Shown in pieces: positions 1-52,583 of a stretch of 64,000 bases of DNA. The translations under genes and the position numbers were made by a program. Within the stretch, counting starts at the first letter, position 1. Each line of letters starts with the position of its first letter. The notes under the pieces were generated by a model. The model did not search any database, was not told the DNA's origin, and was given only the letters and a program-made list of their open reading frames with translations. Source of the DNA: a virus (taxonomy: Duplodnaviria > Caudoviricetes); the IMG/VR virus record IMGVR_UViG_3300028593_000003; one strand, written 5' to 3'.

Positions 1-304
1 TTCCATTCCCAGTTTCGATATTTTCCTGTTCAATGATGTCAGGAATATAGCCGTGGGATGACAATATCGGTTGCGCCTTCGGGTTCGTTATTCTGATGAT
101 CGATCTTCTCTGATTGTATGTGAGGAAATTCTTGGCAAGTTTTGAGGATTTCTCACCCTCGATGATAAAAATATACACCCTCGAATATCTCTTCAAGGCA
201 TCTTCAATAATTTTTTGGTGGGCTTTCGTAGGTGGTGACATTCTACCTATGAAAATTCCCACCGCTTTTGATTTCTGTTCCGTAAGGAATGTGGAAAATT
301 TCAT
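1..304 (-). CDS. Cytidylyltransferase-like (HxGH-type nucleotidyltransferase), partial, runs off the window edge
   Basis: Not in the ORF track. Manual translation gives MKFSTFLTEQKSKAVGIFIGRMSPPTKAHQKIIE..., with a GRxxPPTxxH motif. ATG at 304 overlaps the upstream TGA (TGATG). Confidence 0.75.
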   Translation of the reverse strand, partial: MKFSTFLTEQKSKAVGIFIGRMSPPTKAHQKIIEDALKRYSRVYIFIIEGEKSSKLAKNFLTYNQRRSIIRITNPKAQPILSSHGYIPDIIEQENIETGNG

Positions 305-552
305 CAGCTGTGAACCCAAAATCCTCTTTTCTGCAATCCGGCCACTATCTGCTGGAAGAGCTTATATCTGTCATTCGGATTGCTCTCCATCTTACTTACC
401 ATATGGGAAATATCGCTGTAGAAAATATCTCCGGCAATAGTCTTTCCCCCCTTTTCCATCGGGTGTGCCCGTGTTCTGGCAATCTTGTTTACCAAGATTT
501 CTACATCTTGAGGTTTCGTTTTGAATTCTTTCAAATATTTTTGAAGTCTCAT
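304..552 (-). CDS. Small hypothetical protein with YLxE leader
   Basis: Starts MRLQKYLKE; coupled to both neighbours. Confidence 0.6.
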   Translation of the reverse strand: MRLQKYLKEFKTKPQDVEILVNKIARTRAHPMEKGGKTIAGDIFYSDISHMVSKMESNPNDRYKLFQQIVAGLQKRGFWVHS

Positions 553-875
553 TTATTCAACCTCTTGTTTATCTTCTGCCTCATTGCTTCCAAGTTTGTA
601 ATATTATCTACCTTCGTAATCAGGTCATTGGCCACTTTTATGAGAAGTTTCAAATTACTTTGAACTTCAGGTATATAATCCAAATTCATTTCGTACATCA
701 TCCCTGAAGCGCTTGACCAATTACTTTGAATTTCATCGAAGGCATCCTGTAAATCATCCAATACATTTTCTATCTCATCTTCCAGCTTATCAATTCTCTT
801 ATCAAGGTCTTTTAGCTTCGGGTCGCGGGCCGCGGCCTCTCGCAAATATTCCCCAATTTTCTTCTCTATACTCAT
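549..875 (-). CDS. Helical hypothetical protein with YLxE leader
   Basis: Starts MSIEKKIGEYLRE; coiled-coil-like body. Confidence 0.65.
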   Translation of the reverse strand: MSIEKKIGEYLREAAARDPKLKDLDKRIDKLEDEIENVLDDLQDAFDEIQSNWSSASGMMYEMNLDYIPEVQSNLKLLIKVANDLITKVDNITNLEAMRQKINKRLNK

Positions 876-1201
876 CTCTTCATTCCCTCCAAATCTCTGG
901 CAAGCGTGCTTCTCTCATCCTTCGCCGCATAGTCCATATTATAATTCATCTGCTTGATTATTTCCTTTGGTATACCAAGTTCCTCTCCCTTCTTGGTATT
1001 CACATCTTTCTTTATTCTTACATATCTGTCAAAATTCTTGAGAGCTTCTGCTGGATTGTCTTTATATGCCTCAAAAATCTTTTTCCTCTGAAGCTCAAGA
1101 TCTTGAATGGATGTCTTGATGAGATGCTTACCTCCCTCAAGCCAGTCCTCATCTTTTTTTGTTCCCTTGAAGATTTTGGATATCATTTCTATTGCTTTCA
1201 T
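872..1201 (-). CDS. Hypothetical protein
   Basis: Likely start MKAIEM at 1201 (TAATG overlap) rather than 1249. Confidence 0.55.
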   Translation of the reverse strand: MKAIEMISKIFKGTKKDEDWLEGGKHLIKTSIQDLELQRKKIFEAYKDNPAEALKNFDRYVRIKKDVNTKKGEELGIPKEIIKQMNYNMDYAAKDERSTLARDLEGMKR

Positions 1202-1554
1202 TATAAACTCAAACTCCCCGATTTGGCAAGATATACGGTCATTGCCCATACTTGGGCCCTTTTATCTTCCGGAACATCTCTCAAATCTCCTGTATATTTT
1301 AATTCCTGGCTTACATATTTTTTAATTATTGGCTCCTCATTAGGGCTCTTGTCAAGTATCTTTATATATTCTGCCCATAGTTTATTATCGACATCCCCCA
1401 GTATAGACGATAATCTCTTCGCATCATCAATATTTTTTGCGGAGGCTATCTTGAACATAAACTTTGTCAGATCCCACAGCCCGGCGGCCTCCATCAAATT
1501 CATCGGTTCTTTTATATAGAGATATTTTTCAATAAGTCTATCTTCTTTTTTCAT
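1201..1554 (-). CDS. Hypothetical protein with IEKYL leader
   Basis: Starts MKKEDRLIEKYLYIKE; tightly packed operon. Confidence 0.6.
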   Translation of the reverse strand: MKKEDRLIEKYLYIKEPMNLMEAAGLWDLTKFMFKIASAKNIDDAKRLSSILGDVDNKLWAEYIKILDKSPNEEPIIKKYVSQELKYTGDLRDVPEDKRAQVWAMTVYLAKSGSLSL

Positions 1555-1817
1555 ACATTTGTCCTCTGTATTACTTTTTCATTCGGAGATTTTCCCCAAT
1601 ATGGATTTTCTTTCGCTTTCTCAATCAGATCATCTGGTGGCTCTTCATTGAGAAGTTGCGGGTGAAAGAGTATTCTATATTGTGGTCTTTTCTTCTCATC
1701 AAAATACGCAACAAGGGCAGACCAGCTGTTGATTTCCTGTATCACTACACCTTTCAACATAACCTTCTTGTTGATTTGTGCCCTTCCTACAACATAATCT
1801 CCGCTTTCAAGTTTCAT
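1551..1817 (-). CDS. Hypothetical protein
   Basis: 88-aa ORF with 4-nt overlaps at both ends. Confidence 0.55.
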   Translation of the reverse strand: MKLESGDYVVGRAQINKKVMLKGVVIQEINSWSALVAYFDEKKRPQYRILFHPQLLNEEPPDDLIEKAKENPYWGKSPNEKVIQRTNV

Positions 1818-2218
1818 TTCTTTTTCCCCGTCCTTGTTAAAGCGTCCAAATCTTCTTCCCTGATTTTTCCAAGGATGAAATAAAGATATTTTTTCTCATC
1901 ATCGTCCAGGCGTCTTTCAACCGCCCTTTTTATGTTATAAGATAGCATTGAATAATCCGCCCACGCGCCCTGTTTTTGAGTATATTTTTCAGCATATTTT
2001 TTGAGAAGGCCTTGAAATGTCTCATCCGCCCTCAATTTTTCCACAATCTCCTCCCCCCTTTTACTGTAAAAATAATTCTGGACTTTGACTTTTATCCTTT
2101 GATAAATATCTTGCGCCTCTCTTGAAATGGCGAGACCGAGCAGTCCTCCCATTACTATTGATAGTAGATATACGAAAGTTGGGTCTGCCTGTTCCGTCAA
2201 GTAATTTTTAAGCCTCAT
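1814..2218 (-). CDS. Hypothetical protein, YLxE leader followed by a transmembrane helix
   Basis: MRLKNYLTE then FVYLLSIVMGGLLGLAI. Confidence 0.65.
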   Translation of the reverse strand: MRLKNYLTEQADPTFVYLLSIVMGGLLGLAISREAQDIYQRIKVKVQNYFYSKRGEEIVEKLRADETFQGLLKKYAEKYTQKQGAWADYSMLSYNIKRAVERRLDDDEKKYLYFILGKIREEDLDALTRTGKKK

Positions 2219-2544: not shown

Positions 2545-2776
2545 CGTAATCTCTCCTCAATTTCATCAGATCTTTTCTGATGCTCCGAATTGTATCTTCT
2601 ATACTTTTACGAGAAAATCCGGCGCCAAGGGATTTCATATTATCTTCTATATCATCAAGAAGTTTTGGTAACCTTTTCTCACACCATTTTTTATAATATA
2701 GGAGCAATTCTTCGTGATATTCGGGATCAATATTTTCAGTCAAATACTTTTCGATTTTATCATCTATTCTTTTCAT
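2531..2776 (-). CDS. Hypothetical protein with YLxE leader
   Basis: Likely start MKRIDDKIEKYLTE at 2776. Confidence 0.6.
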   Translation of the reverse strand: MKRIDDKIEKYLTENIDPEYHEELLLYYKKWCEKRLPKLLDDIEDNMKSLGAGFSRKSIEDTIRSIRKDLMKLRRDYDANR

Positions 2777-3144
2777 TTGACATACCATCCATATTTTTTC
2801 TTGATGAATTTGGCGTGCTCATCCATCTCACTTACGAGCTCACTTACCAGATCCTCTGATATATATTGTAGAAGCTGATCTTGAACAAAAACAATAAGCT
2901 TTGCATAAAAGGTTTGGAAACATCTTTTCTGCCCAACCGGATCATCTTTGTATATTTCCATACAAGTATTCTCAGCATATTCATCCATTGCATTCAATGT
3001 TTTTGAAACAGTTTCTTTGAAAGCCTCCTCAGCTCTTTTCTGTGCAGCCTTGAGTTGTCCTCTCAATGGATTAAACCTGCTATCAATTGCCTCAGAAATA
3101 TTTTCGTTCAAATATCTATCAATCTTCTCGTCAATCGTTTTCAT
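2773..3144 (-). CDS. Hypothetical protein with YLxE leader
   Basis: Likely start MKTIDEKIDRYLNE at 3144. Confidence 0.65.
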   Translation of the reverse strand: MKTIDEKIDRYLNENISEAIDSRFNPLRGQLKAAQKRAEEAFKETVSKTLNAMDEYAENTCMEIYKDDPVGQKRCFQTFYAKLIVFVQDQLLQYISEDLVSELVSEMDEHAKFIKKKYGWYVK

Positions 3145-3145
3145 T

Positions 3146-3427
3146 TCAATACTCCTCATAATTTGGGCAAATTCCCTGTGGGTCTACATCCAATCCCGCG
3201 TGGATTGGAATGGGAATATCATATTCTTTAGCAATAATACTCATATTTTGTTCATTTCTACAAGTCATTTCAAGATAATAGTCACAGGTTCCACAACATT
3301 TTTGTTTCGTCATTTTATACCCAATGGCTTTCAGATCGAGTTTTGAAAGATCAATTCTTCCCTTTGGAGAATGATATATTGTGGCGTCTGTCAGATACAT
3401 ATCAATCTTCTCTTCAATCGTTTTCAT
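3146..3427 (-). CDS. Small 4-Cys protein (HiPIP-like Cys pattern) with leader
   Basis: MKTIEEKIDMYLTD; CxxC...C...VxxxGxCxxY. Confidence 0.6.
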   Translation of the reverse strand: MKTIEEKIDMYLTDATIYHSPKGRIDLSKLDLKAIGYKMTKQKCCGTCDYYLEMTCRNEQNMSIIAKEYDIPIPIHAGLDVDPQGICPNYEEY

Positions 3428-3831
3428 TATACTTTCTCCTGTAGTAACCTTATTAACTTCTCCAAGACATACTGTGCCTTATAGGGCATATCCGATACGA
3501 CACCGTGGGTCTTATTATTGATATCAATAGCAACACTTCTTGCTAGTTCTTTTGCAATCTTGTCAAGTTCTGGATAGTGGCCAAAAAGAGTTTTCTGGAT
3601 TTGCTTGTCAGCACTTCTCAATGCTGCCAAATCTTCCTTGTATCCCTCTTTCAATGAAGGGAAAACACGCTCTTTATTTTTGGGATGCCACATAGAATGA
3701 CCGTGACAATATCCCCCATCTCCTCTGGCTCCACCCCTTGTCCTTGTTCTCGCCCTTATCATCTTCTTACCACAAACAGGACATACCTCGTTTTGCTCAC
3801 CGATATATTTCTGGATTACTTTGTCTATCAT
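3427..3831 (-). CDS. Hypothetical protein with leader and CPxCG knuckle
   Basis: MIDKVIQKYIGE; CPVCG...C-H. Confidence 0.6.
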   Translation of the reverse strand: MIDKVIQKYIGEQNEVCPVCGKKMIRARTRTRGGARGDGGYCHGHSMWHPKNKERVFPSLKEGYKEDLAALRSADKQIQKTLFGHYPELDKIAKELARSVAIDINNKTHGVVSDMPYKAQYVLEKLIRLLQEKV

Positions 3832-5264: not shown

Positions 5265-5492
5265 TTATTCTCCAGCTTCTATTTTATCTTCAATATCCTT
5301 CTTCATAGCCACCAGTATTTCTATGGCATCATCAATAAAAGTAAATGCCATTTTATCATTATAATTCAGATATGATCCTTCAAGTGCCCTCAACATATCC
5401 ATTATTCTATGAATATCAACTGGCACCTTTGCTAACGGATGTCTACTCCCAATGTCATCCTTCAATAATTTACTCATCTTGTTTCTATCCAT
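5265..5492 (-). CDS. Hypothetical protein
   Basis: Short ORF filling the operon; start may be MSKLL at 5477. Confidence 0.5.
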   Translation of the reverse strand: MDRNKMSKLLKDDIGSRHPLAKVPVDIHRIMDMLRALEGSYLNYNDKMAFTFIDDAIEILVAMKKDIEDKIEAGE

Positions 5493-5863
5493 TCATCCTG
5501 TACTGCATCCCAAAAGGGTTCAACCATTGGATTACCTATTTTCTGATGGGGTGTGACATATTTTGCCACCAATTCTTGATATTTATCCTTGAAAAATTTA
5601 TCAACTGTTCTGGATGGTATTCCCCATGCGCCTTCTGCGGCATCGCTTGCCTCGTCAAGTTCCTTTACTACATCGGCAACTGCTTTTCTGTAAATCTTGT
5701 CTATTTTTTCCTGTGCAATCATCACTTGATCCTCTGCCCGTTCAATTGCATCATCCATAATATTATCAATTGTATTATAAATTACTTGCCATTCGGCTCT
5801 TGCCCTTCTGGCTTCCATATCGGCCTCTTTCAGATACTTTGTAATTTTCTTATCCACGCTCAT
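5474..5863 (-). CDS. Helical hypothetical protein with YLxE leader
   Basis: Starts MSVDKKITKYLKE-A. Confidence 0.65.
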   Translation of the reverse strand: MSVDKKITKYLKEADMEARRARAEWQVIYNTIDNIMDDAIERAEDQVMIAQEKIDKIYRKAVADVVKELDEASDAAEGAWGIPSRTVDKFFKDKYQELVAKYVTPHQKIGNPMVEPFWDAVQDEWIETR

Positions 5864-6045
5864 TTTTCCTCCAACAATTCCTTGATTTCTTCCAGAAGTT
5901 CTATCGTATTTTCGACAATTTGCTGGGTCAAAACAATGTTACCTCTTCCAAACGCCCTGTCTGCATTGACTACGCCCTGCATAACCTGCACAAGTTTTGG
6001 TGGTATGTTATTATATCTGGACATTTCATTTCCCCCGAAAGACAC
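5860..6045 (-). CDS. Hypothetical protein
   Basis: Short ORF directly downstream of a TATAAATA late promoter. Confidence 0.5.
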   Translation of the reverse strand: MSFGGNEMSRYNNIPPKLVQVMQGVVNADRAFGRGNIVLTQQIVENTIELLEEIKELLEEK

Positions 6046-10589: not shown

Positions 10590-10611
10590 ATTGAAACCCC
10601 TTTTTATTATG

Positions 10612-10641: not shown

Positions 10642-10677
10642 TCTCCCGAAGCATCTCACACCGATTTGGAGGAGATA

Positions 10678-13256: not shown

Positions 13257-14429
13257 TTAGGATGGTAGACCGCTGATATCAACCTTCTTGTAGTAGAGGT
13301 TACTACCGAAGATGTGCTGGTGGATAGCATATCTGCTCATCAAACCAACGGTTGGATGGAAGGACTGCTCAAAGATAGTCTTTGATACCATCAGCTGAAT
13401 GTATGGAAGGTAAATAATACCTGCATCATACTCTGATGGGCCCTTGTAACCAACTGTCATATAGTCGGATGCGGCAAATGTGTCTCTGTAGACCGTAATA
13501 CGGCCATCAAGAGAACCCATCTTGGAGATACCCGCTACGAGAGTATTCATATCGCCGTCAGTTGGGTGAATAACGAAACTTGAAAGACCTTCGAATGCGG
13601 CACAAGTATATGGGGATGCCAGTACGAAATTACCAGCTCCTCTACGAGTGTCAATCGCGATCTTGTTGGCTCTACGAACAACCACGTTGTAGAGGTTTCT
13701 GTATTTCTCAGATTCCCATCTTCCATCCGCGGATGCTGAATATGACCAAGTTGTGGTTTCCGCAATACCGTTCACGACATTGACGATCTCTCTGTCAATT
13801 TCCGCCGTAATTTCGTATGCAAGAATGTCCATCATCTCCTCTTCGAGATCAAGACCGTGCATTGCTTTGAGGTCTTGTGCAACTTCAAGTGACCATCTGC
13901 TTCTCAATTTTCTTGTCTTGGCTTCTACCTGTGCCTTTTCAACCGTGAGGTTTACTTCGTTGATGGGGGTTCCCGCACCAACACCGAGGCCGACATCACC
14001 AGTAACATTAGAACCGAGAATTTCACCAGCAGATGTGATGTAAGATCCAGAATAGGTAGTATCCATCGTATTATAACCGAGCTCCGTACCAGGCGCTCCA
14101 GCATAATTTGATGCACCACCGGCTCTGAATCTGAGCGCGAACGCCAGCCCTACCGGGCCTGTGAGTGGCTGAACACCAACGATATCGTGGGCAATCAGCT
14201 CAGGGAAAGTACGTCTTACCATCGGAACGGCAATCTGATGAAAATCACCGGAAATCGCATAGGGCGATCCACGGCCGACTTCTGACCAGTTTCCTGCTTC
14301 CGTGAGGTACTTATATTCGTTCTCGAGCATAAGAGCCGTAGCTTTTTTGATCTTCTGAGAGCGAATTTTATTTCCCTCGGCGAGAACCTTATCCCATTTC
14401 TCAATCAACTGCTTTGTTTGTTCTCTCAT
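13257..14429 (-). CDS. gp23: Major capsid protein (T4 gp23-like)
   Basis: VRR.FP.LIA.DI.GVQP..GP.GL.FALR, AKTRKL...WS.E.AQDL.A.HG.D, EI.AEIDREI, RRG.GN, YLPY; candidate maturation site YKYLTE/A. Confidence 0.97.
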   Translation of the reverse strand: MREQTKQLIEKWDKVLAEGNKIRSQKIKKATALMLENEYKYLTEAGNWSEVGRGSPYAISGDFHQIAVPMVRRTFPELIAHDIVGVQPLTGPVGLAFALRFRAGGASNYAGAPGTELGYNTMDTTYSGSYITSAGEILGSNVTGDVGLGVGAGTPINEVNLTVEKAQVEAKTRKLRSRWSLEVAQDLKAMHGLDLEEEMMDILAYEITAEIDREIVNVVNGIAETTTWSYSASADGRWESEKYRNLYNVVVRRANKIAIDTRRGAGNFVLASPYTCAAFEGLSSFVIHPTDGDMNTLVAGISKMGSLDGRITVYRDTFAASDYMTVGYKGPSEYDAGIIYLPYIQLMVSKTIFEQSFHPTVGLMSRYAIHQHIFGSNLYYKKVDISGLPS

Positions 14430-14453: not shown

Positions 14454-15362
14454 TTAGAATTTATTCTCTTTCAGAATGGTGACAACTCCCTTCAGATACT
14501 TGCTAAAAGGATCGTCACTTTCCTCGACCGGCTTTCCTTCCTGATCTTCGACCTCGATTTTGCCTTGACCCATATCCTCCGCTGGAGTTGGTTCATCAGC
14601 ATCTTTCATCTTGGCGCCGCAGGATGGGCAGGCCATTGCGGAGCACGCACCTTTTGTGGTTGCGTGAGAACCGCAGGATGGGCAAACACAATCATTTGTC
14701 TTTGCCTCTGCATCAGGCTCCTGGCTGCCTGGCTTTAGACCAAATTCGGCATCCGGTGCTTCCTGTTCGAGAATGGTGTCAACAACAATCTGGAACTTTC
14801 TGTCGATTTCTGTTTTCTCATTCAGATCGCCCAGAAGGTCGAGAACCTTTCTCCTCTGTGCCTCTGTGAGGCCGTCACACTTCTTTCTCAAATAGAGATG
14901 AGATGCAAGAGCACGGGCATCTTCTTCTGCCTGAATTCTCTTTGAAGTTTCTTTGTTGAGTTCATCTTTCAGTTTGATGATCTCTTCTTTTGCTTCGCGG
15001 AGAAGGCCTTTGATTTCCTCATTCAGAACTCCCTCATCAATAGCAAGTCTTACTTTGAATTCCTGAATGACTTCATCATAAAGTTCGCCCTTCTTTGCAT
15101 ATTCCACAACTTTATCAGGCAACTTGAGTTCTTCTTCAAGAACGGTATCTACAAAATTGGAAAACTTTGATGTGATATCGCCTTTATATTCCTCAAACTT
15201 GCCCTCGTATTCCTCGATGAGTTTCTCAGATTCTTCCTTGACAAGCTTGTCTGCTCTCTCACGGGATTTTACATCCACGATGGCTTCCAGCTTCTCTTTT
15301 ACGGCTGAAATCTGTGACTCTTCGAGTTTCTCAATACCGAGCACTTTCAAGATTTCTTCCAT
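14454..15362 (-). CDS. gp22: Prohead core scaffold protein (T4 gp22-like) with a Cys-rich insert
   Basis: Acidic coiled coil, GLTEAQ motif, position directly upstream of gp23. Confidence 0.75.
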   Translation of the reverse strand: MEEILKVLGIEKLEESQISAVKEKLEAIVDVKSRERADKLVKEESEKLIEEYEGKFEEYKGDITSKFSNFVDTVLEEELKLPDKVVEYAKKGELYDEVIQEFKVRLAIDEGVLNEEIKGLLREAKEEIIKLKDELNKETSKRIQAEEDARALASHLYLRKKCDGLTEAQRRKVLDLLGDLNEKTEIDRKFQIVVDTILEQEAPDAEFGLKPGSQEPDAEAKTNDCVCPSCGSHATTKGACSAMACPSCGAKMKDADEPTPAEDMGQGKIEVEDQEGKPVEESDDPFSKYLKGVVTILKENKF

Positions 15363-15379: not shown

Positions 15380-15787
15380 TTATTTTTTACTCTTAGACTC
15401 AGAGAGTCTTTTAAGTCTTTTCTTTGGTTTCTTCGATTCGACAACTTCATCTTCGATATCTGCATATTCGTCTGCTATGGTATCATCAACCACTTCATCG
15501 TCTACTACATCCATTTCGGATGTATCGTCATCAAGATGTGTCTCATCGAAATTCCAATCTCTATCTGTCAGTTCGAATGGAGGTTCGAAGGCCGAGAGAA
15601 TTTCCTCTCTGATCCTTTTGCCTTCAGCATCAAGAACATTTGGGTCAAGGCTATAGATGAAATTTCCCATCCTATCGAGAAGCTCGTCCATATCAAAGCT
15701 TTCTTTCAAACATCGTTTTGGATCTCTCTTGCGAAGCCTCTTTTGATCTTTCGCAAGAAACTCATCAATTCTATCAAGAATAGACAT
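15380..15787 (-). CDS. Acidic prohead-core/internal protein candidate
   Basis: GGAGG RBS before MSILDRIDEFL; Asp/Glu-rich with several xxE sites; lies in the head module. Confidence 0.5.
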   Translation of the reverse strand: MSILDRIDEFLAKDQKRLRKRDPKRCLKESFDMDELLDRMGNFIYSLDPNVLDAEGKRIREEILSAFEPPFELTDRDWNFDETHLDDDTSEMDVVDDEVVDDTIADEYADIEDEVVESKKPKKRLKRLSESKSKK

Positions 15788-15882
15788 ACTTTCCTCCATT
15801 TGGAATTATTTATCGGTTTTTTGATTGTTTTGAACAGATTGGTTAAAACACAGGATTATCAAGGGTTTTCAGTTACAGTTTT

Positions 15883-16131
15883 TTATTTTGGTGTATATTT
15901 TTTACATACGCCGTTCAATGATACCCAAAATGTAAGTGTTCCATATTTTCTGGATATTCTTATATTTTGTGGATTTACACATCTATTTTTAAATTTGCCT
16001 ATATCAATGTGAAGGCAGGTTGCACAGACATCGATTTTTCTCTCCTGATATCCGGCCTCGAAATATTGTTCATCTTCATAGGTAGTCTCTTTTTCCGCCA
16101 AATATTTTTCCACCACTCTCTCTATTTCCAT
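15883..16131 (-). CDS. Small 4-Cys protein (HiPIP-like Cys pattern) with YLxE leader
   Basis: MEIERVVEKYLAE; CATC...C...VSLNGVCKKY; paralog of 3146..3427. Confidence 0.6.
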   Translation of the reverse strand: MEIERVVEKYLAEKETTYEDEQYFEAGYQERKIDVCATCLHIDIGKFKNRCVNPQNIRISRKYGTLTFWVSLNGVCKKYTPK

Positions 16132-18464: not shown

Positions 18465-18500
18465 GTAGATTATAGTAGATTATCTACTAACTGTTCCTAC

Positions 18501-18569
18501 CCTTTCTTTTTGGCTTAGGCCAAAAATTTCACCAAGATATCTTTCCATTATCAAATCTACTTTATCCAT
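18501..18569 (-). pseudogene. 5' part of the IS607-interrupted gene (carries a YLxE leader)
   Basis: MDKVDLIMERYLGEIFGLSQKER; ATG overlaps the upstream stop (TAATG). Confidence 0.7.
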
Positions 18570-19003
18570 TATATGTTTCTCCCTGTTGTGAACTTTACTT
18601 TATACTCAAAAAGGTCTTTCAATGTGCTGAGACTTTTCCAGAGATAGGTATAGGCCTCATGTATTGTTTCGTATTCCTCATCATCAAAAAAACCATCCCG
18701 CCACATTGCTTTCAACGAATTGAGGTTCCTTTCCATTTCATTGTCAAACTTTCTTATACTGGAAACCATATTGGCCAATGCCATCGGGGCGCTTGCCTCA
18801 TTCATCTCATATTGTTTCGATTCTGGAAATGTGACATCGCCGGTGAAGGTGGTTTCAACGGAACCGCTGATATACTTGTCCATCAGTTGATAGGCCTTTT
18901 TGGTTTTCTTCTTGGCCTGATAAAACTCCGGAAACTTTTTCCTGAGCATATCGTCAATTTTCTCTTCCTTGCCCATTTTTCCACCCTCTATTTCCGTGTT
19001 CAT
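18569..19003 (-). CDS. Hypothetical head-module protein
   Basis: Coupled to gp21; internal MDKYI and MNE/A sites. Confidence 0.55.
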   Translation of the reverse strand: MNTEIEGGKMGKEEKIDDMLRKKFPEFYQAKKKTKKAYQLMDKYISGSVETTFTGDVTFPESKQYEMNEASAPMALANMVSSIRKFDNEMERNLNSLKAMWRDGFFDDEEYETIHEAYTYLWKSLSTLKDLFEYKVKFTTGRNI

Positions 19004-19638
19004 TACTTCATCCCCCTCTCGATATCAGCAATAACTTGCCAGATTTTCTTGTAATACTCTTTCTGCGCCTCTTTCAGGGAGATTTTTGGCTGCTCGATAA
19101 CAGGCTCTTCGACAACCTTTTCCTTTTTTGGTGGTTCAAAGTCCTGGCCTTCATAGATACCATTTACCCAAGACGGGTGATTGGACGGGTCTGTAACCAT
19201 ATCCCAAGTGATGAGATAAAAGTCCTCATTGACATAACCATTCTCATTGACGGAACCGAGGCCTCTGGAAGAAATACCCATTCTGCCTTCTTTGATAAGG
19301 GTCTTGGCAATATTTCCCATCGGAGTATCAAGAACTTTTGACCTCCCGATTACATTCGGGCCATCCCAATCAAGCTTTTCAGTCAGAATGGCAATCTTGT
19401 CAGGATTGATTTCAGGATTTGGTGGGTGACCAAGTTCGCCCCAAAGGCTCCTGTTCGTCAATCTCTCTTCCAGCTTGCCAATTTCTCTTTCGAGAATATC
19501 TTTGGAATATATCCTCTTGTTGTTGTTCTCTTGATCGGCTGTGCTGTAGATGCCAGTAATGTAAAGAGATTTCCCTTTCTGTTCAGACTCCTCCACAATA
19601 AACTCAATATTGTGGGAGAGCTCGGTAATAAGCTTCAT
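19003..19638 (-). CDS. gp21: Prohead protease (T4 gp21-like)
   Basis: MKLITE, N.N.RIY, GELGHP, TPMG, GISSRGLGS, WDMVTDPS. Confidence 0.95.
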   Translation of the reverse strand: MKLITELSHNIEFIVEESEQKGKSLYITGIYSTADQENNNKRIYSKDILEREIGKLEERLTNRSLWGELGHPPNPEINPDKIAILTEKLDWDGPNVIGRSKVLDTPMGNIAKTLIKEGRMGISSRGLGSVNENGYVNEDFYLITWDMVTDPSNHPSWVNGIYEGQDFEPPKKEKVVEEPVIEQPKISLKEAQKEYYKKIWQVIADIERGMK

Positions 19639-19677: not shown

Positions 19678-20028
19678 TTACTCGTTCCCGGCACCAACTG
19701 TTTTCAGAATACGGATAGGTGTGGTCTTGATGACATTGATGACCTGCGCAATTCTCTGATTGTTGGGGAATTTCGTTACAAGTTCGTGTGCGAGAGACAT
19801 TGCTTTCGCAAACTTTGCTGGTGTATTTGCCATTGTGAGATAGTATTTCAATCTCTTGAGGCCCTGTGTAATACTGCCGGCATCCCTTGTTGGATCGTAG
19901 GTGCCTGGTACTGAACTGGCTACAGGCGGATAAAGTTTTTGATCACCGGCTGAAAATTCCTGTGGCTCCGGTTCATCAAAAACTCCTTCCTTCAAATACA
20001 TATCAATTTTTTCCTCGATCTTTTTCAT
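19678..20028 (-). CDS. Hypothetical protein with YLxE leader
   Basis: Starts MKKIEEKIDMYLKE-G. Confidence 0.6.
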   Translation of the reverse strand: MKKIEEKIDMYLKEGVFDEPEPQEFSAGDQKLYPPVASSVPGTYDPTRDAGSITQGLKRLKYYLTMANTPAKFAKAMSLAHELVTKFPNNQRIAQVINVIKTTPIRILKTVGAGNE

Positions 20029-20220: not shown

Positions 20221-20475
20221 TTATTTTTTGGCTGCCTTTTCTCTTTCTCTTTCAGCCTTTGCTTTTTCCTGATAACTCTCGATTCTCTTCTGCAGAGTTT
20301 CGATGTGGGCCTGTCCTCTTTTACGGATTTGCTCTTTCCTGTCAGGATCGTCCGTATCCTCCACAGCCCGACTGACCAGTTCACGGGTATCCCGTATCTG
20401 TTTTCTCAAAAGGCTAATAGTATCCGAGTAATCAGCTTCCATAAGATATCTTTTCATAACTCTGTTAACTTCCAT
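20221..20475 (-). CDS. Small coiled-coil protein with YLxE leader
   Basis: GAGGTG RBS; MEVNRVMKRYLME-A. Confidence 0.6.
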   Translation of the reverse strand: MEVNRVMKRYLMEADYSDTISLLRKQIRDTRELVSRAVEDTDDPDRKEQIRKRGQAHIETLQKRIESYQEKAKAEREREKAAKK

Positions 20476-20517: not shown

Positions 20518-23013
20518 TCAGTCTTTTCTCCTGTTTATAAAATCTATTGACATTTGAATAATATATTTGAACATCTCATTCAATTTTGTATCTTGGTGAG
20601 ATTCCAGCTGCAAACAAGTTTGAAAATCCTTGTGAAACTGAATTGTATCTTGAACTGTCGAGCCTTTACCTCCCTTTGGTCGCAGCGTTTGAACACCTAT
20701 CAAAAACTCTTTACCTTCCCTATCAATTCCATAGATGTTTGCATATCCTGAAGATGATAATCCCCTCACTTTTTTTCCTTCCGTATCGAAATCATCATCA
20801 TCTTCAACATCGGTGCTACTACATTTGACTTCTGAAACTCTTATATGCTTCCAGAAATCCTGCTTATCTTTCTTTGTTTTCAAACCAAGACATTTGGAAA
20901 AGGTTTCTGTATTCCCCACAGTCGCAGTATCACCATCTGTCAATCCGGTTATTGTTCTGGTAACCTCCTGACCGTTTACTATTCTCGTAAATCTTTCAAC
21001 CTGCTTTTCCTTACCTTTTTCTTTAACCGTGACCATCTTCCTTTCCCACGGATTACCCTGTTCATCGTATCTTATTCTACTATTATTTTTCCCCATATTC
21101 AATTCAAAATACTTTGCTGGTATTCCACCAACATTGTGCCCGGAAACAATATGACCGTGAAACCTGTCTATAAACAATTTGGAAAAATATTCGTCGCCTT
21201 TACCTTTGAGGGCTTTATTCATTTCTTTTCTCGCCTCATTTTGTAGCATATGCTGTTCCTGATATTTCCCGGCCATAGCCTTTTCATCAAATGGCGCAAT
21301 TCTGCTTGCAACTTTACTCATTTCTTTTGAAACATCAATTGTATCGTCCACTACACTTGCTTTCAATTCATTAACATATGAGAGAAGTATTTTTTTCTCC
21401 TCTTCATCAGTCAATGGTGGTTTATATGTTCCTGTTTTACTATTAAAAGTCCGGCCTTTTATAGGTGTATCACCTTCATAATATCTCTTGACTATCGAAT
21501 TCCAATATTTTGCTGGTTCATCTCCTGTACTTGATTTTTTTATTTCATCTATGAGCTTTTTTCTTTCATTTGGTTTCAAAGCTCTCTGATAAAGTTTATC
21601 ATATTCTTTGCTGATGACCCCCTCTACTTCTGACTGTTTTTCCTCCAATCTCTTGACAAGTCTATCACAGGCTTTCTTGTAGGCATTATATTCTTTTGCT
21701 GAGATTTTTCCATCGTTCAAATCCTCTTCCGCATAAGATAACATTTTTTTGACATTCGATACTGGGCTTGAATTTCCTTGGATATCAGATGTGGATGTCT
21801 TATTGGATGTATGAAGAATAACTGCCTTTGGAGGCTTCTGTGAATGATCTATAAGAACTGACATTGTATCAGTAGGATTATCTCCAGCACCTCCTCCCAA
21901 AATGACAGATTTATATTTGTTAAATGATACACCATTTACTTCCACTACTCCCATCTTATCGAGAAAATCAACTGTGTTTTGTAAAGATTCTTTACTCCCC
22001 CAAACGTGAGAAACTGTAGTGGTCTTTGGATTAAATCCATCCTCTTTCATTACTCTTTTTATTCTTCTATGTTCGGCTTTTGCAGAAATGGCCGCGGCAT
22101 ACGCCGCTTTTTGACTTAATTCCTCTCCATTTTTATAAACAACATCCGTATCTTTTATCTCTTTCCATAGTTTTTGATAAAGTTGGTTTACATTCATATT
22201 TGGATTTTGATGGAGATAAGAAAGACAAGTTCCAATACTCGTTTCATTGATAAATGATGATTTATTGCCCGGAGCCTTTGTTCTTCCTTCATATGCCCCC
22301 TTCTTTGCGTCACCATCAATTATATCAATTATAGAGCGATCCATACCACCCTTTTCTTTCAGGGTTTTCAAAACTTTCTCTTGTTTTTTGGTCGCCTTTT
22401 CCTTCTCAACCTTTTCAACTTTTGCGGCGTATTTTTTGTAAACATCTTCTGACCAAGCTGGGGCGCCGGTTTCTCCACCTTCTCCAAATTGGTCGTGGAA
22501 ATTGTGAAGAAATTTCGATAGCTCTTCTTGTTCCATCCCCTTTAATAAACTATCAAACTTTTTTGTTTTCTCTTGATCTGTTTCTTTGGATTTGACAATG
22601 GAAGAAAATTCTTTATTTTTTATTTTCTTTATCGCGTCTTTCTGGTGATCTGTGATTCCCGCCGGAGACACGGCCTCTTTAGGTTTTTCCTTTTCTTTTC
22701 CAAGTTCCTCTTCGTGTTTTGTCTCTATTTTTTTCGCCTTTGAATCTTTTTGTTTGAGTGGAGCCCCAAGATGGCTCGCATATACTCCTTCTGGATATCT
22801 ATCAAGTATATAATTCTGCTCGCCGGCAGACCATTTATTCCATCTTGCTATTTGTTCCGGTGTAATTTCCTTTTTCTTTTTATCGCTTGGCTTTTCTTTT
22901 GCCGTTGTTTTTTCTTTCGGCTTCAACACACTTACAGGCGCCTTTGACTTTGGCTTTGTGGCCTCAAAAAAAATATCAGAAATATTTTCTTTTACGAAGT
23001 TTCTAAATTTCAT
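20518..23013 (-). CDS. 831-aa Lys-rich hypothetical protein with leader, downstream of portal
   Basis: MKFRNFVKE; low-complexity N-terminus; no family recognised. Confidence 0.7.
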   Translation of the reverse strand: MKFRNFVKENISDIFFEATKPKSKAPVSVLKPKEKTTAKEKPSDKKKKEITPEQIARWNKWSAGEQNYILDRYPEGVYASHLGAPLKQKDSKAKKIETKHEEELGKEKEKPKEAVSPAGITDHQKDAIKKIKNKEFSSIVKSKETDQEKTKKFDSLLKGMEQEELSKFLHNFHDQFGEGGETGAPAWSEDVYKKYAAKVEKVEKEKATKKQEKVLKTLKEKGGMDRSIIDIIDGDAKKGAYEGRTKAPGNKSSFINETSIGTCLSYLHQNPNMNVNQLYQKLWKEIKDTDVVYKNGEELSQKAAYAAAISAKAEHRRIKRVMKEDGFNPKTTTVSHVWGSKESLQNTVDFLDKMGVVEVNGVSFNKYKSVILGGGAGDNPTDTMSVLIDHSQKPPKAVILHTSNKTSTSDIQGNSSPVSNVKKMLSYAEEDLNDGKISAKEYNAYKKACDRLVKRLEEKQSEVEGVISKEYDKLYQRALKPNERKKLIDEIKKSSTGDEPAKYWNSIVKRYYEGDTPIKGRTFNSKTGTYKPPLTDEEEKKILLSYVNELKASVVDDTIDVSKEMSKVASRIAPFDEKAMAGKYQEQHMLQNEARKEMNKALKGKGDEYFSKLFIDRFHGHIVSGHNVGGIPAKYFELNMGKNNSRIRYDEQGNPWERKMVTVKEKGKEKQVERFTRIVNGQEVTRTITGLTDGDTATVGNTETFSKCLGLKTKKDKQDFWKHIRVSEVKCSSTDVEDDDDFDTEGKKVRGLSSSGYANIYGIDREGKEFLIGVQTLRPKGGKGSTVQDTIQFHKDFQTCLQLESHQDTKLNEMFKYIIQMSIDFINRRKD

Positions 23014-24690
23014 TTATTCGGTTTCTCCCGGCGCTGGTAAAGGGCCAGCTGTTTCAATTTCTCCCTCTCCACCCGTTTCTTCTTCACCACCAAATTCCTC
23101 TTCACCACCAAATTCTTCTTCACCACCCATACCGGGCTCTTCTGGTGGTTGGAACAACTTGTCTTTTTCTTTCAGGCACTTTATATTCTCATCAATCTCA
23201 GCATCTGTCCAACCAAGATATTTTTTCATCAGGAAGTATTTGGAAAACTCCTGATTTCCAGCAAGGGCATTATAATTGGAATGGCGAACTTCAACAAATC
23301 CCTGTTCCAGAGACTCTTTGTAGTGGGAAGGTGGAACCATATTGATTGTAATCATATCCTTTTCCACACCGTACTGTTTCTTCAAACCCTTGAATGACAA
23401 GTGCATTAAAAACAGTTCTTTGAGTTCATCACAGAACCTTCTCTGATGTTTCTCAAGAAATTTTGCCCATTTTACTTCGTCACGGGAAATTTCACCAGTA
23501 TGGGAACCACCAACAACAATTTCTGCCTCTCTCTTTTCCTGACCCGCTGTAACACGGGAAGCTGGGTATTTCAATGCTCGATATAACTTTCGAGCGAAAT
23601 AATAAATGTCATCCAGTTCGGAGAAACCAGCTGGATTACCACCTACAGTTTCAATGGACGATCCTCTTCCATCCGCGGACTGTGGGAGAAAGAAATTTTC
23701 CAGAATGGAAAGAACTTCTGGCTCCTGTGAGAGTTGCCCTGTCTGTGGATCATAGGTCTGTCTCTTGATGAATTTCGTCTTTATCTTCTCGACAAATTTC
23801 ATCGCCTTGTCTTTAGGCATATTACCAGTATCAATCTTGAAAACAAATCTCTCCGGCGCCCTGATAATACGGTAAATGATTACCGATGTTTCCAGAAGTT
23901 TCAGCTGGTTATATGGAACACGGGCCTTTTCAAGGTAACCAAAAACTTCGCCCTTTGTCCTACCATAAATTCCATAGTTGACGTATCCGATCTGCTCGGG
24001 ATTGAACACTATAACCTTGGGGTCTTTTTCTGCTTCATCCCTCGTTGATGGTCTTTTTACATTTGGTGCGAGATACTGATAGTAATAAAGAATATTGCCG
24101 TCTCTTGGATCATAAACATAATCCATTGTTTCGGACGGAAGTTTTTTGATTGTCTGGATGCCCTGACTTGGCTTATTTTTATTGATAACCCTTTCATAAT
24201 ATACTCTGCCATCAATATAATATGTTCTCATAAGATCATCAATAACTTTATCTATATCTATTCTTCTATAAAAAAGTTCGTCAAATTCTTTATAGATATT
24301 TTTTATGACATTTTTATTTCCTGCCAGTTTTTCATCAAGTATAGCTAAACTAAAAATCTTATTCTCATTATCTGTCAAAGTGGATTCATTTACAGCGTCC
24401 TCGATGACATCCCCGATTTCGGGATATTCTGCCATTCTTCTGTATTCAAGTATTTTTGCGACCTCGGACTCAAAAACCTTGTTTATGTATCGGTTATAAA
24501 AGGTATTCAGGTTACCATAACCAAGGGAACCATAACCGGATATGAGAAGATAGTCCTCAACACCCTCTCCTCTTACAGCATCCGCTTCTGCGTGTGTGGG
24601 AAGATCACCTTTTCCCACAAACACTTTCATGGATTCATCCAACCTTACATCTTCATCTTTTTTACCAAATAAACGGTCATACCACGCCAT
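23014..24690 (-). CDS. gp20: Portal protein (T4 gp20-like)
   Basis: YR.MA..PEI, YIDGR, NQLKLLE...IIYRI.RAPER.VF.IDTGNMP, E.FFLP, YF..KLY.AL..P.SR, ISRDE.K. Confidence 0.96.
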   Translation of the reverse strand: MAWYDRLFGKKDEDVRLDESMKVFVGKGDLPTHAEADAVRGEGVEDYLLISGYGSLGYGNLNTFYNRYINKVFESEVAKILEYRRMAEYPEIGDVIEDAVNESTLTDNENKIFSLAILDEKLAGNKNVIKNIYKEFDELFYRRIDIDKVIDDLMRTYYIDGRVYYERVINKNKPSQGIQTIKKLPSETMDYVYDPRDGNILYYYQYLAPNVKRPSTRDEAEKDPKVIVFNPEQIGYVNYGIYGRTKGEVFGYLEKARVPYNQLKLLETSVIIYRIIRAPERFVFKIDTGNMPKDKAMKFVEKIKTKFIKRQTYDPQTGQLSQEPEVLSILENFFLPQSADGRGSSIETVGGNPAGFSELDDIYYFARKLYRALKYPASRVTAGQEKREAEIVVGGSHTGEISRDEVKWAKFLEKHQRRFCDELKELFLMHLSFKGLKKQYGVEKDMITINMVPPSHYKESLEQGFVEVRHSNYNALAGNQEFSKYFLMKKYLGWTDAEIDENIKCLKEKDKLFQPPEEPGMGGEEEFGGEEEFGGEEETGGEGEIETAGPLPAPGETE

Positions 24691-47154: not shown

Positions 47155-47349
47155 CTAATCCCTGTATGTATCCCTGTACCGTTCCAATGATTTTTGGAGC
47201 GCTTCTTTTCTTTTTCTCAATGCTTCTTTTGTATTTTTATCTTCCGTGCTCTGGATTTGTTTTTCCAAATCCTGTATCTGTTTTTTTAACCTTATTCTCG
47301 CATTTATTGTCTGTGTATCATCTTCAGAGAGAAATTCGTAAAGTCTCAT
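47155..47349 (-). CDS. Small coiled-coil protein with FLxE leader
   Basis: MRLYEFLSE; resembles 20221..20475. Confidence 0.6.
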   Translation of the reverse strand: MRLYEFLSEDDTQTINARIRLKKQIQDLEKQIQSTEDKNTKEALRKRKEALQKSLERYRDTYRD

Positions 47350-47781: not shown

Positions 47782-47967
47782 TTATCTCGTCAGTTTATCG
47801 AATGCAAGGCCGATCTTATGCCAGTCAATCCAACCATCTCCACCTCTATTCATCACCATTTGGTTCAGAATAAAATCATAGGCCCCATCTTCTCCATATT
47901 CGGCAAGAAGATTTTCTGCTTCCTGTCTATAATTTATCGCCTCGGTCAAATAATTTTTAAATTTCAT
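47782..47967 (-). CDS. Small protein with YLxE leader
   Basis: MKFKNYLTE-A. Confidence 0.55.
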   Translation of the reverse strand: MKFKNYLTEAINYRQEAENLLAEYGEDGAYDFILNQMVMNRGGDGWIDWHKIGLAFDKLTR

Positions 47968-48931: not shown

Positions 48932-49278
48932 TGTATTCCTCCCGTTTTATCTAGCTGTTCCTTTACTTTCTCTCGTTCTCTGATAACATTGTTATAATCT
49001 TCCCGTAAATCCTGATCACTTGGATATTTCTTCATCAGGATTTTGAGATTGACCATCTGATCTGTAAGGGTCGTGTATCTCTGTTGCAATCTGTCTCTTT
49101 GATAATCCTGTTTGAATTGCTGAAAGGTTTGAACTGTTTGCTGCTCCATTTGCGCCAGTTCTTTACTCCTCGCATATCTGCTATCAAGACCAAAAAGTGA
49201 ACTTACAAGACCAAGAATAATACCCATTGTTATAAGTATATTTTTCACATTTATCTCTGGCATATAATCCACCCCCAT
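48928..49278 (-). CDS. Membrane-anchored coiled-coil protein
   Basis: N-terminal TM; late promoter upstream. Confidence 0.55.
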   Translation of the reverse strand: MGVDYMPEINVKNILITMGIILGLVSSLFGLDSRYARSKELAQMEQQTVQTFQQFKQDYQRDRLQQRYTTLTDQMVNLKILMKKYPSDQDLREDYNNVIREREKVKEQLDKTGGIQ

Positions 49279-49291
49279 ACTTTGTCAATAG

Positions 49292-50335: not shown

Positions 50336-50877
50336 TGTCCGAAGAAAGATTAATTCCCGAAACAATAGTCAAGCTATTATTTGACCAGATAAAAAGTTCT
50401 GCTGACACCAATACATCTTCCATTCAGAAACTTGGTGATGCGATCAATGAAATTACCAAGGTTCAATCTTCTCTCGCAACAAAAAAAGACCTTATAGATG
50501 AGATAAAAGGTCTTGATGGAAAGGAGAGTGAGAGATTAAAATATCTGATTCAGAAAATAGAGAAAACAGAGGAAATACTGGGAACAAGAGTAAATGGTGT
50601 AGGAAGGAAAGTTGAGGATGAAGAAGATTCCATAAATAAAATAGAAATTATAGAAAAGAAAGTTGATGGTATAGAAAAAAAGGTAGACGATATATCATCA
50701 AAAATAAAGACGATGATAACAGTTGTCATCGTTTCCTTTGCATTGCTACTGGGTGTTTTTTATTTTGTAAAAAGTGCAACCGATGTTTCTGTCAGAAATG
50801 CAATTGAGGGGGCTGTAAAAGAGATAATCACCACAAGACCATCCAATATATATCCACCATCGCCCGGAGGAAGATAA
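50335..50877 (+). CDS. Coiled-coil protein with a C-terminal transmembrane helix
   Basis: TAATG-coupled to the PAS gene; TM MITVVIVSFALLLGVFYFV. Confidence 0.6.
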   Translation: MSEERLIPETIVKLLFDQIKSSADTNTSSIQKLGDAINEITKVQSSLATKKDLIDEIKGLDGKESERLKYLIQKIEKTEEILGTRVNGVGRKVEDEEDSINKIEIIEKKVDGIEKKVDDISSKIKTMITVVIVSFALLLGVFYFVKSATDVSVRNAIEGAVKEIITTRPSNIYPPSPGGR

Positions 50878-50878
50878 G

Positions 50879-51247
50879 ATGAGGTTGTTGAATTTCTTGA
50901 AGAGTATTGAGGAACAGGATGGCGGTATGGTTGGTGCGACTACAACCGCAAGTATCGCCCAATATCCTGTCAGGCTCGGTATTGGAATTACCAGAAGGGA
51001 AGCCACCAAAAATTGGAGAAGATGGAAAAAGAAAAGGAAAAAAGTCGAGGAGCAGGAAGCCAGTATCGGGATGCCTGGTGGTTGGGGTTCGGCTGGTGGG
51101 TCACCCACAACAAAACAAATATTACAGGATCCTGTAAAGCACGATTACGGTATGACAAGAAGGGAAGCCACCAAAAATTGGCGCAGACGCAAAAAAAGGA
51201 TGAAGGAATTATTCCAAAATGGCACATCTCATTCAATATCTGATTGA
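50879..51247 (+). CDS. Basic protein with leader and a two-copy internal repeat
   Basis: MRLLNFLKSIEE; TRREATKNWRR occurs twice. Confidence 0.55.
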   Translation: MRLLNFLKSIEEQDGGMVGATTTASIAQYPVRLGIGITRREATKNWRRWKKKRKKVEEQEASIGMPGGWGSAGGSPTTKQILQDPVKHDYGMTRREATKNWRRRKKRMKELFQNGTSHSISD

Positions 51248-52583
51248 ACAGAATATAGACAAAGTAAGATTTGTAGTTCTTACTGGCAGAAAACCAAATG
51301 GTGAAAATGAACTGATCAGGACGGCCAGAGTTATCAAGGAAACTTGTGATAAAAAAGGTGTGCCCTGTTATGTCGTATTTGCTGAGGATGGATATATTTC
51401 CAGAAAGAACGGAAAAGTTTATATCCACAATATTGAAGATGATAAGGGTTTCGAAATCAATTCTCAAGACACGGTTGTTATCGTGAGAGGAAGCGTCACC
51501 AAGTCACAATCAAGCCTTGACCTTCTTTCCCAAATCGAGAGACATAATATCTTTTGTGTAAATCACAGATTGACACTTGAACAATGTGCTGACAAGTACA
51601 GAACAGCTCTCGTACTTGCGGATGCGGGAGTGTCAACGCCCAAAACAGCCATTGTCAATAACGAAAAGGGTCTGGAAATCGCGTTCAAGAAAATGGGAAG
51701 AAGGTTCCCTGTCATTCTCAAGACATTGACTGGCTCAAAAGGCGTCGGTGTATTTGTCGCAGACAGCTGGGAAGGATTGAAATCAACCCTGCAAGCCATC
51801 TGGAAAATAAATCATAGTGTTGAAATCATTATGCAGAGATTTCTTGAGGCTGACTATGATCTCCGTGTTCACGTTCTTGGAGATAAAGTCATCGCGGCAA
51901 TGAAGAGGAAAAAAATAAAGGGAGATTTCCGCTCCAACTATTCTCTCGGCGGTAAAGTCGAAAAAGTGGAGTTACAGGATGACGAAATTGAACTCGCCAT
52001 CGCGGCCTCGAAAGCCGTGGGGGCGACTTGGTGTGGTGTCGATATAATGAGAAACAAGAAGGACAAAAAGCTTTTTGTCCTCGAAGTCAATTCATCGCCC
52101 GGCACAGAGGGGATTGAAAAGGCCACGGGAAAATCGGTTGTAACAAAGGTGGTCAATTACCTTCTGGACAAAAGAAACTGGTCGAGAAGGCCAATAGAGT
52201 GTGGCTACCTTGAGACAATGGAACTGGAAGGCATCGGGCCCGTAGAAGCCAAACTTGATACAGGTAACGGCTCTTTCTGTGTCATTCACGCCGAGGAATA
52301 TGAGGTGGATGGAAATAAAGTTACTTGGCTATTCAACGGAAAGGAAATCACAAGTGAACTTGAAAGTGAAAGAACCATCAAGGTTGGTGGACTGAAAACT
52401 GGAACAGTAGACAGGCCGGTAATCTGGTTGGATGTCAAATTCAGAGGTGAAACTTACAGGATGAGATTTGCCCTGAATTACAGGGGTGACAGAAAGACTT
52501 ATCTATTGATGAATAGAAACTTCATTCGTAAGGCAAATCTGATAATCAATCCTCGCAGAAAGCATGTGTTCACGAAAGATTAG
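51219..52583 (+). CDS. rimK: RimK-family ATP-grasp ligase fused to a RimB-like (DTG) protease domain
   Basis: DK..T...L...GV..PKT, FPVILK..GSKG.GV, D.RV.V, FRSN.S.GG, GVDI, LEVNSSPG; C-terminal AKLDTGN..RP.I. Confidence 0.88.
   Translation: MAHLIQYLIEQNIDKVRFVVLTGRKPNGENELIRTARVIKETCDKKGVPCYVVFAEDGYISRKNGKVYIHNIEDDKGFEINSQDTVVIVRGSVTKSQSSLDLLSQIERHNIFCVNHRLTLEQCADKYRTALVLADAGVSTPKTAIVNNEKGLEIAFKKMGRRFPVILKTLTGSKGVGVFVADSWEGLKSTLQAIWKINHSVEIIMQRFLEADYDLRVHVLGDKVIAAMKRKKIKGDFRSNYSLGGKVEKVELQDDEIELAIAASKAVGATWCGVDIMRNKKDKKLFVLEVNSSPGTEGIEKATGKSVVTKVVNYLLDKRNWSRRPIECGYLETMELEGIGPVEAKLDTGNGSFCVIHAEEYEVDGNKVTWLFNGKEITSELESERTIKVGGLKTGTVDRPVIWLDVKFRGETYRMRFALNYRGDRKTYLLMNRNFIRKANLIINPRRKHVFTKD

Follow-up and report, generated by a model that had tools for sequence, protein, structure and literature searches.

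The internal proteins of phage T4 are the classic proteins that are injected together with phage DNA, and one of them, IPI, is an anti-restriction factor. To our knowledge, few such injected proteins have been described, and they are hard to recognise by sequence. In T4, IPII and IPIII (and the propeptides of IPI and Alt) bear a capsid targeting sequence (CTS) that is removed by the prohead protease gp21 (Mullaney and Black 1996; reviewed in PMC9026906, PMC3012670). Packaging requires no more than the first 10 residues of IPIII, and gp21 cuts after L/I-x-E and also removes its own nine N-terminal residues (PMC9026906, PMC9958956). Within the CTS, residues 4 and 7 chiefly govern targeting and residues 8 and 10 processing, while an Asp at position 10 blocks cleavage but not targeting (PMC9026906). 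In the giant phages phiKZ, 201phi2-1 and SPN3US, many head proteins are processed after Glu by a gp21-related protease, and their ejection proteins are thought to be delivered with the DNA, with a propeptide inferred to target the prohead (PMC5694885, PMC7411985). Here, we describe a shared N-terminal leader on about one quarter of the genes in a 64,000-nucleotide stretch (hereafter the window) of the IMG/VR virus record IMGVR_UViG_3300028593_000003, which derives from a divergent, uncultured T4-like myophage. This leader is likely a much-expanded, two-length variant of the T4 CTS that is cut by a gp21-type protease.

Gene calling with a codon-usage score yielded 84 genes in the window, most of them on the minus strand. 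The original prediction held that about 24 unrelated open reading frames (ORFs) begin with such a leader, and this was a fair estimate: every leader that it quoted could be located, and the pattern [FYW][LIVM].E ended within the first 22 residues of 21 of the 84 genes, versus 3.2 expected from its internal rate in the same proteins (binomial P=3.9e-12). Chance was rejected as the origin of the leader. During curation, three of the 21 matches were excluded, i.e., gp21 (in which the match is possibly its own autoprocessing site) and the genes at 46694-46927 and 48928-49278. The curated set comprises seven short-form tags, nine long-form tags, two long-form variants without the Glu and one truncated stub, or about 19-20 tags, beyond which there are three loose variants (15380-15799, 48638-48931 and 50879-51247) and a doubtful RimK fusion.

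The short form reads M-K/R-F/L-x-x-Y-L-x-E and the long form M-x-x-I-D/E-x-K-I-x-x-Y-L-x-E. Since the short form equals the long form with its Met shifted to position -5 from the aromatic residue (i.e., with one helical turn fewer), the two align as one motif in two lengths, with a hydrophobic spacing of i, i+4, i+7, i+8 that resembles an amphipathic helix. Counted from the aromatic residue across 19 genes, column -7 holds I/V, -6 D/E and -4 K/R; column -3 is I, L or F in 16 of the 19; column 0 is Y (16) or F (3); column +1 is L (16), I (2) or V (1); and column +3 is E (18) or D (1), the exceptions at the Glu being the genes at 3146-3427 (Asp) and 1201-1554. The Glu sits at residue 9-10 in the short form and at residue 12-14 in the long form. 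Conservation ends there, with nothing conserved from +4 onward, and the mature parts are mutually unrelated by BLASTP, one marginal pair excepted. Selection on the leader acts at the protein level: the codons for the Leu at +1 are mixed (TTG, CTG, CTT, CTC) and the DNA upstream of the tagged genes is unrelated. A DNA-level regulatory element was rejected, as synonymous sites are scrambled in most tags. None of the leaders contains a Sec/Tat-type hydrophobic core (about seven or more residues after a basic N-region); charged and hydrophobic residues alternate instead. Only at 2740-2777, 3108-3145 and 3391-3428 do the tags share 74-89% DNA identity over 38 nt (repeat family D1), which indicates a few recent local copies between these three neighbouring genes. 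The genes that carry or resemble the leader are given below, with notes on orthologues in the close relative G001 (65 kb) and in the relatives G002 (101 kb) and G005 (236 kb, 98% complete); lengths are in amino acids (aa).

1..304, minus strand: short form (M-K-F-x-x-F-L-x-E) on the N-terminus of a HIGH-type nucleotidyltransferase, running off the window; PF01467 from residue 17
304..552, minus strand: short form, 82 aa
549..875, minus strand: long form, 108 aa; the G002 homologue lacks the leader and aligns from residue 23
1201..1554, minus strand: long-form variant Y-L-Y-I-K-E with no Glu at +3, 117 aa; variant kept in the G001 orthologue
1814..2218, minus strand: short form, 134 aa
2215..2544, minus strand: long form, 109 aa
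2531..2776, minus strand: long form, 81 aa; tag DNA in repeat family D1
2773..3144, minus strand: long form, 123 aa; its tag supplies the reference copy of repeat D1
3146..3427, minus strand: long-form tag with Asp for Glu, 93 aa; at the DNA level the tag matches that of 2773-3144 with 89% identity
3427..3831, minus strand: long form (...K-Y-I-G-E), 134 aa, N-terminal part Cys-rich
5474..5863, minus strand: long form, 129 aa, between the large terminase gene (TerL) and a gp13-like gene
15380..15799, minus strand: acidic 139-aa protein, likely a core protein, with a loose leader variant (...R-I-D-E-F-L-A-K-D)
15883..16131, minus strand: long form, 82 aa, four Cys
18480..18569, minus strand: long-form tag on a stub of 29 codons, immediately upstream of an IS607-like element
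19678..20028, minus strand: long form, 116 aa, directly upstream of gp21; the sole well-conserved tagged gene
20221..20475, minus strand: long form, 84 aa, directly downstream of two TATAAATA boxes (20493-20510)
20518..23013, minus strand: short form, basic 831-aa protein encoded immediately after the portal gene; identity to its G001 counterpart only about 35%
47155..47349, minus strand: short form, 64 aa
47346..47768, minus strand: short form on a cupin (Cupin_2) of 140 aa, as an N-terminal add-on
47782..47967, minus strand: short form, 61 aa
48638..48931, minus strand: DUF3175 protein with a loose leader-like start, a doubtful member
51219..52583, plus strand: RimK and Zn-protease fusion with a leader-like N-terminus (Glu at residue 10), a doubtful member

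Several features tie this leader to the CTS of T4. The T4 ipII and ipIII leaders (NC_000866) carry Y4, F7, I8 and E10, which is the spacing of columns -3, 0, +1 and +3 in the window. In both systems an N-terminal peptide of about 10 residues heads otherwise unrelated, fast-evolving proteins and ends in the L/I-x-E motif of the S77 protease from the same genome, and the capsid protein is matured at that same motif (as predicted here for the window phage). Unlike T4, which has three or four CTS proteins and some ten gp21 substrates in all, the window holds about 20 tagged genes in 64 kb, or one quarter of its genes; it adds the longer form, lengthened by one helical turn (I at -7, D/E at -6, K at -4), bears tags on recognisable enzymes of cellular origin, and clusters them at gp14-gp15 and gp20-gp22. 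The propeptides of the giant phages are mostly longer than 100 residues and have multiple sites (PMC5694885), whereas here the leader is uniformly 9-14 residues long with one site, and the protease, an S77 enzyme, is closely related to gp21. Systems of this kind are already known, but neither on this scale nor with the long form; also new are the tagging of captured enzymes, the fast turnover and the broad occurrence in uncultured phages. In the literature that was searched, with most subscription journals outside the search, no report was found of a large CTS-tagged set in a T4-related phage, and CTS-type tags are not mentioned in Petrov et al. 2010 (PMC2993671).

The main head proteins are encoded within the same window:

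23014..24690, minus strand: portal protein gp20, untagged
19003..19638, minus strand: prohead protease gp21 (S77; PF03420, 94.3 bits versus a cut-off of 27)
14454..15362, minus strand: scaffold protein gp22, rich in L/I-x-E sites
13257..14429, minus strand: major capsid protein gp23

The assignment of gp21 in the original prediction was thus upheld. The protein is 41% identical to T4 gp21 over the core, and the residues aligned with the T4 catalytic residues H85 and S140 (PMC12991175) are conserved. Its N-terminus reads M-K-L-I-T-E/L, followed by F-I-V-E/E at residues 13-17; it is conserved in relatives, may be an autoprocessing site and is similar to the N-terminal propeptide of T4 Alt (M-E-L-I-T-E/L). 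The further claim that the capsid protein shares the leader motif was also borne out, as gp23 has a predicted maturation site Y-K-Y-L-T-E/A at residues 39-45 (Y-L-T-E/A at 41-45, nt 14295-14309), 27 residues ahead of a conserved P-M-V-R-R block, where T4 gp23 has the equivalent F-L-T-E/A. By phmmer, gp23 residue 50 aligned to T4 residue 78, which brings Glu44 close to T4 Glu65, a few residues away at most. Most relatives with a portal at least about 56% identical retain the site as Y-L-x-E/[AST]-G, and in more distant ones it shifts to a nearby M-N-E; a second conserved site, V-L-A-E/G, lies at residues 15-19. The scaffold gp22 contains 12 internal L/I-x-E motifs versus 7.2 expected, and the tagged genes fill the gp20-gp21-gp22 interval, i.e., the slot of gp67/gp68 in T4. 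Since the shared leader ends in the probable capsid-cleavage site of the head protease, the tagged proteins are probably loaded into the phage head.

The distribution of the tags within the window is uneven. Of the genes outside the replication block 19 out of 70 are tagged, versus none of the 14 inside it (52580-64000; P=0.03), and among genes of at most 150 aa the share is 17 of 45. The long form is restricted to proteins of 81-134 aa, while the short form is also borne by the nucleotidyltransferase, the cupin and the 831-aa protein. Tags are absent from every fibre, neck, terminase, portal and lysis-type gene in the window, in agreement with the original prediction, which saw no such motif at the N-termini of replication, fibre or lysis genes. 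Its argument that tagged genes mostly lie downstream of late promoters did not hold up: TATAAATA was found near 7 of 14 tagged and 37 of 70 untagged genes of the window, which is uninformative because nearly the whole window is late, and proximity to TATAAATA separated tagged from untagged genes neither there nor in G001 or G002. In G005, 4 of 17 tagged genes have a TATAAATA of their own, versus 21 of 363 untagged genes (P=0.02), a modest excess.

Where a tag sits on an enzyme family with cellular members, it can be recognised as an addition. The cupin at 47346-47768 has thousands of homologues. The cellular ones (on contigs of 0.37-1.1 Mb) begin at the conserved domain, about 18 N-terminal residues shorter, so that the leader-bearing extension is absent from them, as was to be expected for a phage-added tag. 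Phage-type copies carry the short leader, and one copy (P0008), on a fragment syntenic with the window, carries the long leader; short and long forms are interchangeable. In an AlphaFold model of the cupin (mean predicted local distance difference test score, pLDDT, 90.6), residues 3-9 form a low-confidence short helix, residues 10-19 a linker and residues from about 20 onward a confident barrel, placing the modelled tag outside the fold and separable from it. On a related phage fragment (L105 130-797), two genes just upstream of a long-leader cupin start with leader-like variants ending in I-L-G-E and I-L-N-E; an aliphatic residue thus replaces the aromatic one in some lineages, so that the [FYW] pattern undercounts tags. 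For the nucleotidyltransferase, the tag is kept in the orthologues of G001 (352 aa) and G002 (584 aa), and a cut after Glu9 would leave four residues ahead of the first Rossmann-like strand. The domain calls that the original prediction made for its cargo enzymes were right throughout (CTP_transf_like, Cupin_2, RimK plus Zn_protease, DUF3175). Two of them are nevertheless doubtful cargo, because the RimK leader is not kept in the G005 orthologue, whose N-terminus differs, and because the start of the DUF3175 protein lacks the motif. The 831-aa protein gave no Pfam or PHROG match, and a protein-atlas search returned viral hypotheticals only.

When reference T4-like phages were scored with the pipeline used for the window, far fewer leaders were found: 7 of 237 genes in T4 (over 150 kb of its genome, with ipII, ipIII and the gene of the head protein Inh among them), 7 of 187 in C48C1 (five seemingly genuine), none of 194 in HTVC008M, 3 of 251 in Moby and 4 of 233 in ACP17. 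Combined, these five phages have 1.9% tagged genes versus 25% in the window (window versus the 3% of T4: odds ratio 11, P=1.8e-8). All five keep [FY]-L-x-E at the capsid-protein site, so that the protease specificity is old and the tag expansion lineage-specific. In C48C1 (OQ984149, Kyanoviridae), about five genes at approximately 57-68 kb start with x-F-K-x-Y/F-L/I-x-E, and the capsid site reads F-L-T-E/T. T4 gene 61.1 (NC_000866, 18966-19130) encodes a 54-aa hypothetical protein in the early region with a near-perfect CTS start, M-K-T-F-K-E-F-I-K-E, which resembles the leaders of ipI, ipII and ipIII.

Among 38 IMG/VR loci with portals 51-87% identical to that of the window, both tag forms recur, and the tagged genes are nearly always on the portal strand. 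Tagged genes number 8 of 72 in G001, 18 of 120 in G002 and 25 of 380 in G005, a share of 7-15%, and the tags of G002 lie in the same two hot spots as in the window (gp20-gp22 and after gp14). Compared with G001, core genes are 82-94% identical and tagged orthologues about 35-52%, with one at 74% and, as the exception, the gene upstream of gp21 at 93%; the content of the arrays, too, is shared only in part between the window phage and G001. Tagged genes thus diverge faster than core genes and turn over.

The breadth of the tag was examined by scanning IMG/VR viral contigs with a back-translated M-K-F-K-x-Y-L-x-E pattern, which matched more than 115 contigs. Among the matches listed, 59 of 86 seeds begin a called gene, and 113 of the 884 other genes on the seeded loci (12.8%) carry the leader. 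Of 10 larger seeded contigs, 6 encode PF03420 (S77), among them three of the four with a completeness of at least 90%, in a sample without a matched control; of the seeded contigs lacking it, the multi-tag ones are all incomplete, and the one complete negative has no gene at the seed.

The mechanism that these data suggest starts from the leader as an N-terminal amphipathic helix of 9-14 residues, hydrophobic at -7, -3, 0 and +1 and with Glu at +3, which would bind the scaffolding core during prohead assembly, so that the attached protein becomes enclosed. Once the shell is complete, the gp21-type serine protease would cut after the Glu, at the same Y-L-x-E as in capsid maturation, and this cleavage would free the mature protein inside the head. 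The mature cargo might then be retained in the virion and delivered with the DNA. The tag is portable, since enzymes captured from cells have acquired it as well as many small proteins that evolve fast. That the tagged proteins stay in the virion and are injected is close to an even call in our judgement, falling if anything slightly short of one. The still broader view is that a wide range of uncultured T4-type phages (this clade and several jumbo phages of 290-390 kb) use a modular tag of 9-14 residues to turn captured enzymes and fast-evolving proteins into cargo that is packaged in the head, released by the protease and delivered with the DNA, with 20 or more such proteins per genome; this we put forward tentatively, as a possibility somewhat short of probable. 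The original prediction of capsid targeting was favoured by every sequence-level test that was run, even though two of its named enzymes are doubtful and its late-promoter argument fails.

Several observations weigh against the capsid-cargo interpretation. The mature parts of the tagged proteins are depleted of internal L/I-x-E sites in the window (21 versus 33 expected, P=0.011), yet this depletion is absent in G001 and G002 and weak and non-significant in G005. No tagged gene of G005 lies within 10 kb of its portal gene. Some orthologues have lost the Glu or the entire leader, and two domains occur untagged elsewhere (the C-terminal domain of the 3427..3831 product, for instance, occurs alone and untagged in G002); the tag is therefore not obligatory for every family. 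Finally, the product of 1814..2218 contains a hydrophobic, transmembrane-like segment of 19 residues (mean Kyte-Doolittle 2.0) starting five residues past the predicted cut, which would be unexpected and awkward for capsid cargo.

Among the alternatives, the one to be taken most seriously, although we regard it as unlikely, is that the tag routes proteins to the prohead where many of them, especially the long-form proteins of 81-134 aa near gp21/gp22, serve as auxiliary core or scaffold components that are degraded and expelled at maturation. It would account for the limitation of the long form to small proteins, for the acidity of about seven mature parts (as in T4 core proteins), and for the failure of the internal-site depletion, expected of surviving cargo, to replicate in relatives. 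Several tagged genes also occupy the position of gp67/gp68, which in T4 likewise are small proteins encoded between portal and protease and cut by gp21; those, however, are conserved, undergo several internal cuts and lack a CTS-type leader, whereas in the proteins described here the leader is uniform and internal sites are few, with 0-2 L/I-x-E sites in most of the small tagged proteins as opposed to 12 in gp22. Core components should also be conserved, while the identities of the tagged genes fall far below those of the core and array content turns over. A cupin and a nucleotidyltransferase would moreover make no sense as scaffold. Some of the small long-form proteins may nonetheless belong to the core or scaffold and be degraded instead of being delivered.

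Much less probable still is that the shared N-terminus is a mere by-product of cassette shuffling or of a single duplicated ancestor, with the conserved 5' end acting as a substrate for recombination or left over from common descent, and with no targeting role. The D1 repeats and the tightly packed arrays that differ between relatives are what shuffling would leave behind, but the scrambled synonymous sites in most tags, the persistence of the peptide motif in relatives with portals as little as 51% identical and on unrelated IMG/VR contigs, the match of the leader to the capsid-protein cleavage site, and the addition of the tag to a cupin of cellular origin all speak against it. A signal unrelated to the head (i.e., for membrane association, other late assembly, degradation or a translation-initiation context) seems equally remote. 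The leader is indeed a short amphipathic helix, one member has the transmembrane-like segment, and Lys codons after the ATG are common translation enhancers. A translation context, however, does not explain why Y-L-x-E is invariant and kept at a fixed distance while its codons vary, the leader lacks a Sec/Tat-like hydrophobic core, and we know of no T4-type tail or membrane assembly that uses such a tag. It would then have to be coincidence that the leader is identical to the capsid site, and likewise that an S77 protease is encoded by this genome and by most of the larger tag-bearing contigs examined.

If the capsid-targeting interpretation is true, one quarter of the genes in the window, and hundreds on other viral contigs, become candidate injected proteins, including a cupin, a nucleotidyltransferase and the basic 831-aa protein. 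The tag would then offer a handle, readable without culturing the phage, for cataloguing injected effectors (many probably anti-defence), and a direct route to mining first-strike effectors from metagenomes. It would also supply natural alternative targeting tags for loading foreign proteins into T4-type capsids, and be of relevance to host sensors of prohead protease activity (PMC12991175).

With regard to the phage itself, a megablast search with the head region as query gave no DNA-level match to GenBank phages, and the described 'far-T4' phages have capsid proteins no more than 36% identical to its own. A public contig of 142,965 bp carries an exact copy of one window protein, which suggests a genome of about 143 kb. 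The remaining landmarks of the window, in transcription order up to the replication block, are as follows:

Fibres and a tail protein: first in transcription order, before the portal gene
20493-20510: the two TATAAATA boxes, directly upstream of 20221..20475
Three small genes: between these boxes and gp21
144-aa gene: between gp21 and the 29-codon stub
16415-18383: IS607-like insertion with a serine recombinase and TnpB
Three small genes: between the IS607-like element and the scaffold gp22
12626-13111: 161-aa gene, after gp23
PrkA / DUF444 / SpoVR block: between the capsid-protein gene and the large terminase
Large terminase (TerL): after the PrkA / DUF444 / SpoVR block
5265-6024: three small genes, after the large terminase
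gp13-like and gp14-like neck genes: after 5265-6024
Array of twelve small genes: last in transcription order, up to the window edge
52580-64000: replication block, 14 genes

The IS607-like element, situated between gp21 and gp22, encodes a MerR-HTH serine recombinase overlapping a TnpB (OrfB_IS605, Cas12f-like TNB domains), and apparently truncated a long-form tagged gene, leaving the stub at 18480-18569. Neither the element nor the gene of the stub is present in G001, and no significant match to an intact homologue was found that would make the stub and the ORF at 16171-16431 two parts of one gene. The block at 7687-12636 contains a full-length PrkA (with both its AAA and its kinase C-terminal domain), a 439-aa gene (9270-10589) that we take to be a DUF444/YeaH-like member, and SpoVR, all of them untagged and 88-94% identical to their counterparts in G001 and 64-82% to those in G002. 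In the replication block, a GIY-YIG homing-endonuclease-like gene (54050-54661) apparently divides the DNA polymerase (53191-56452) into two ORFs, and a further GIY-YIG-like ORF is located at 61305-61931.

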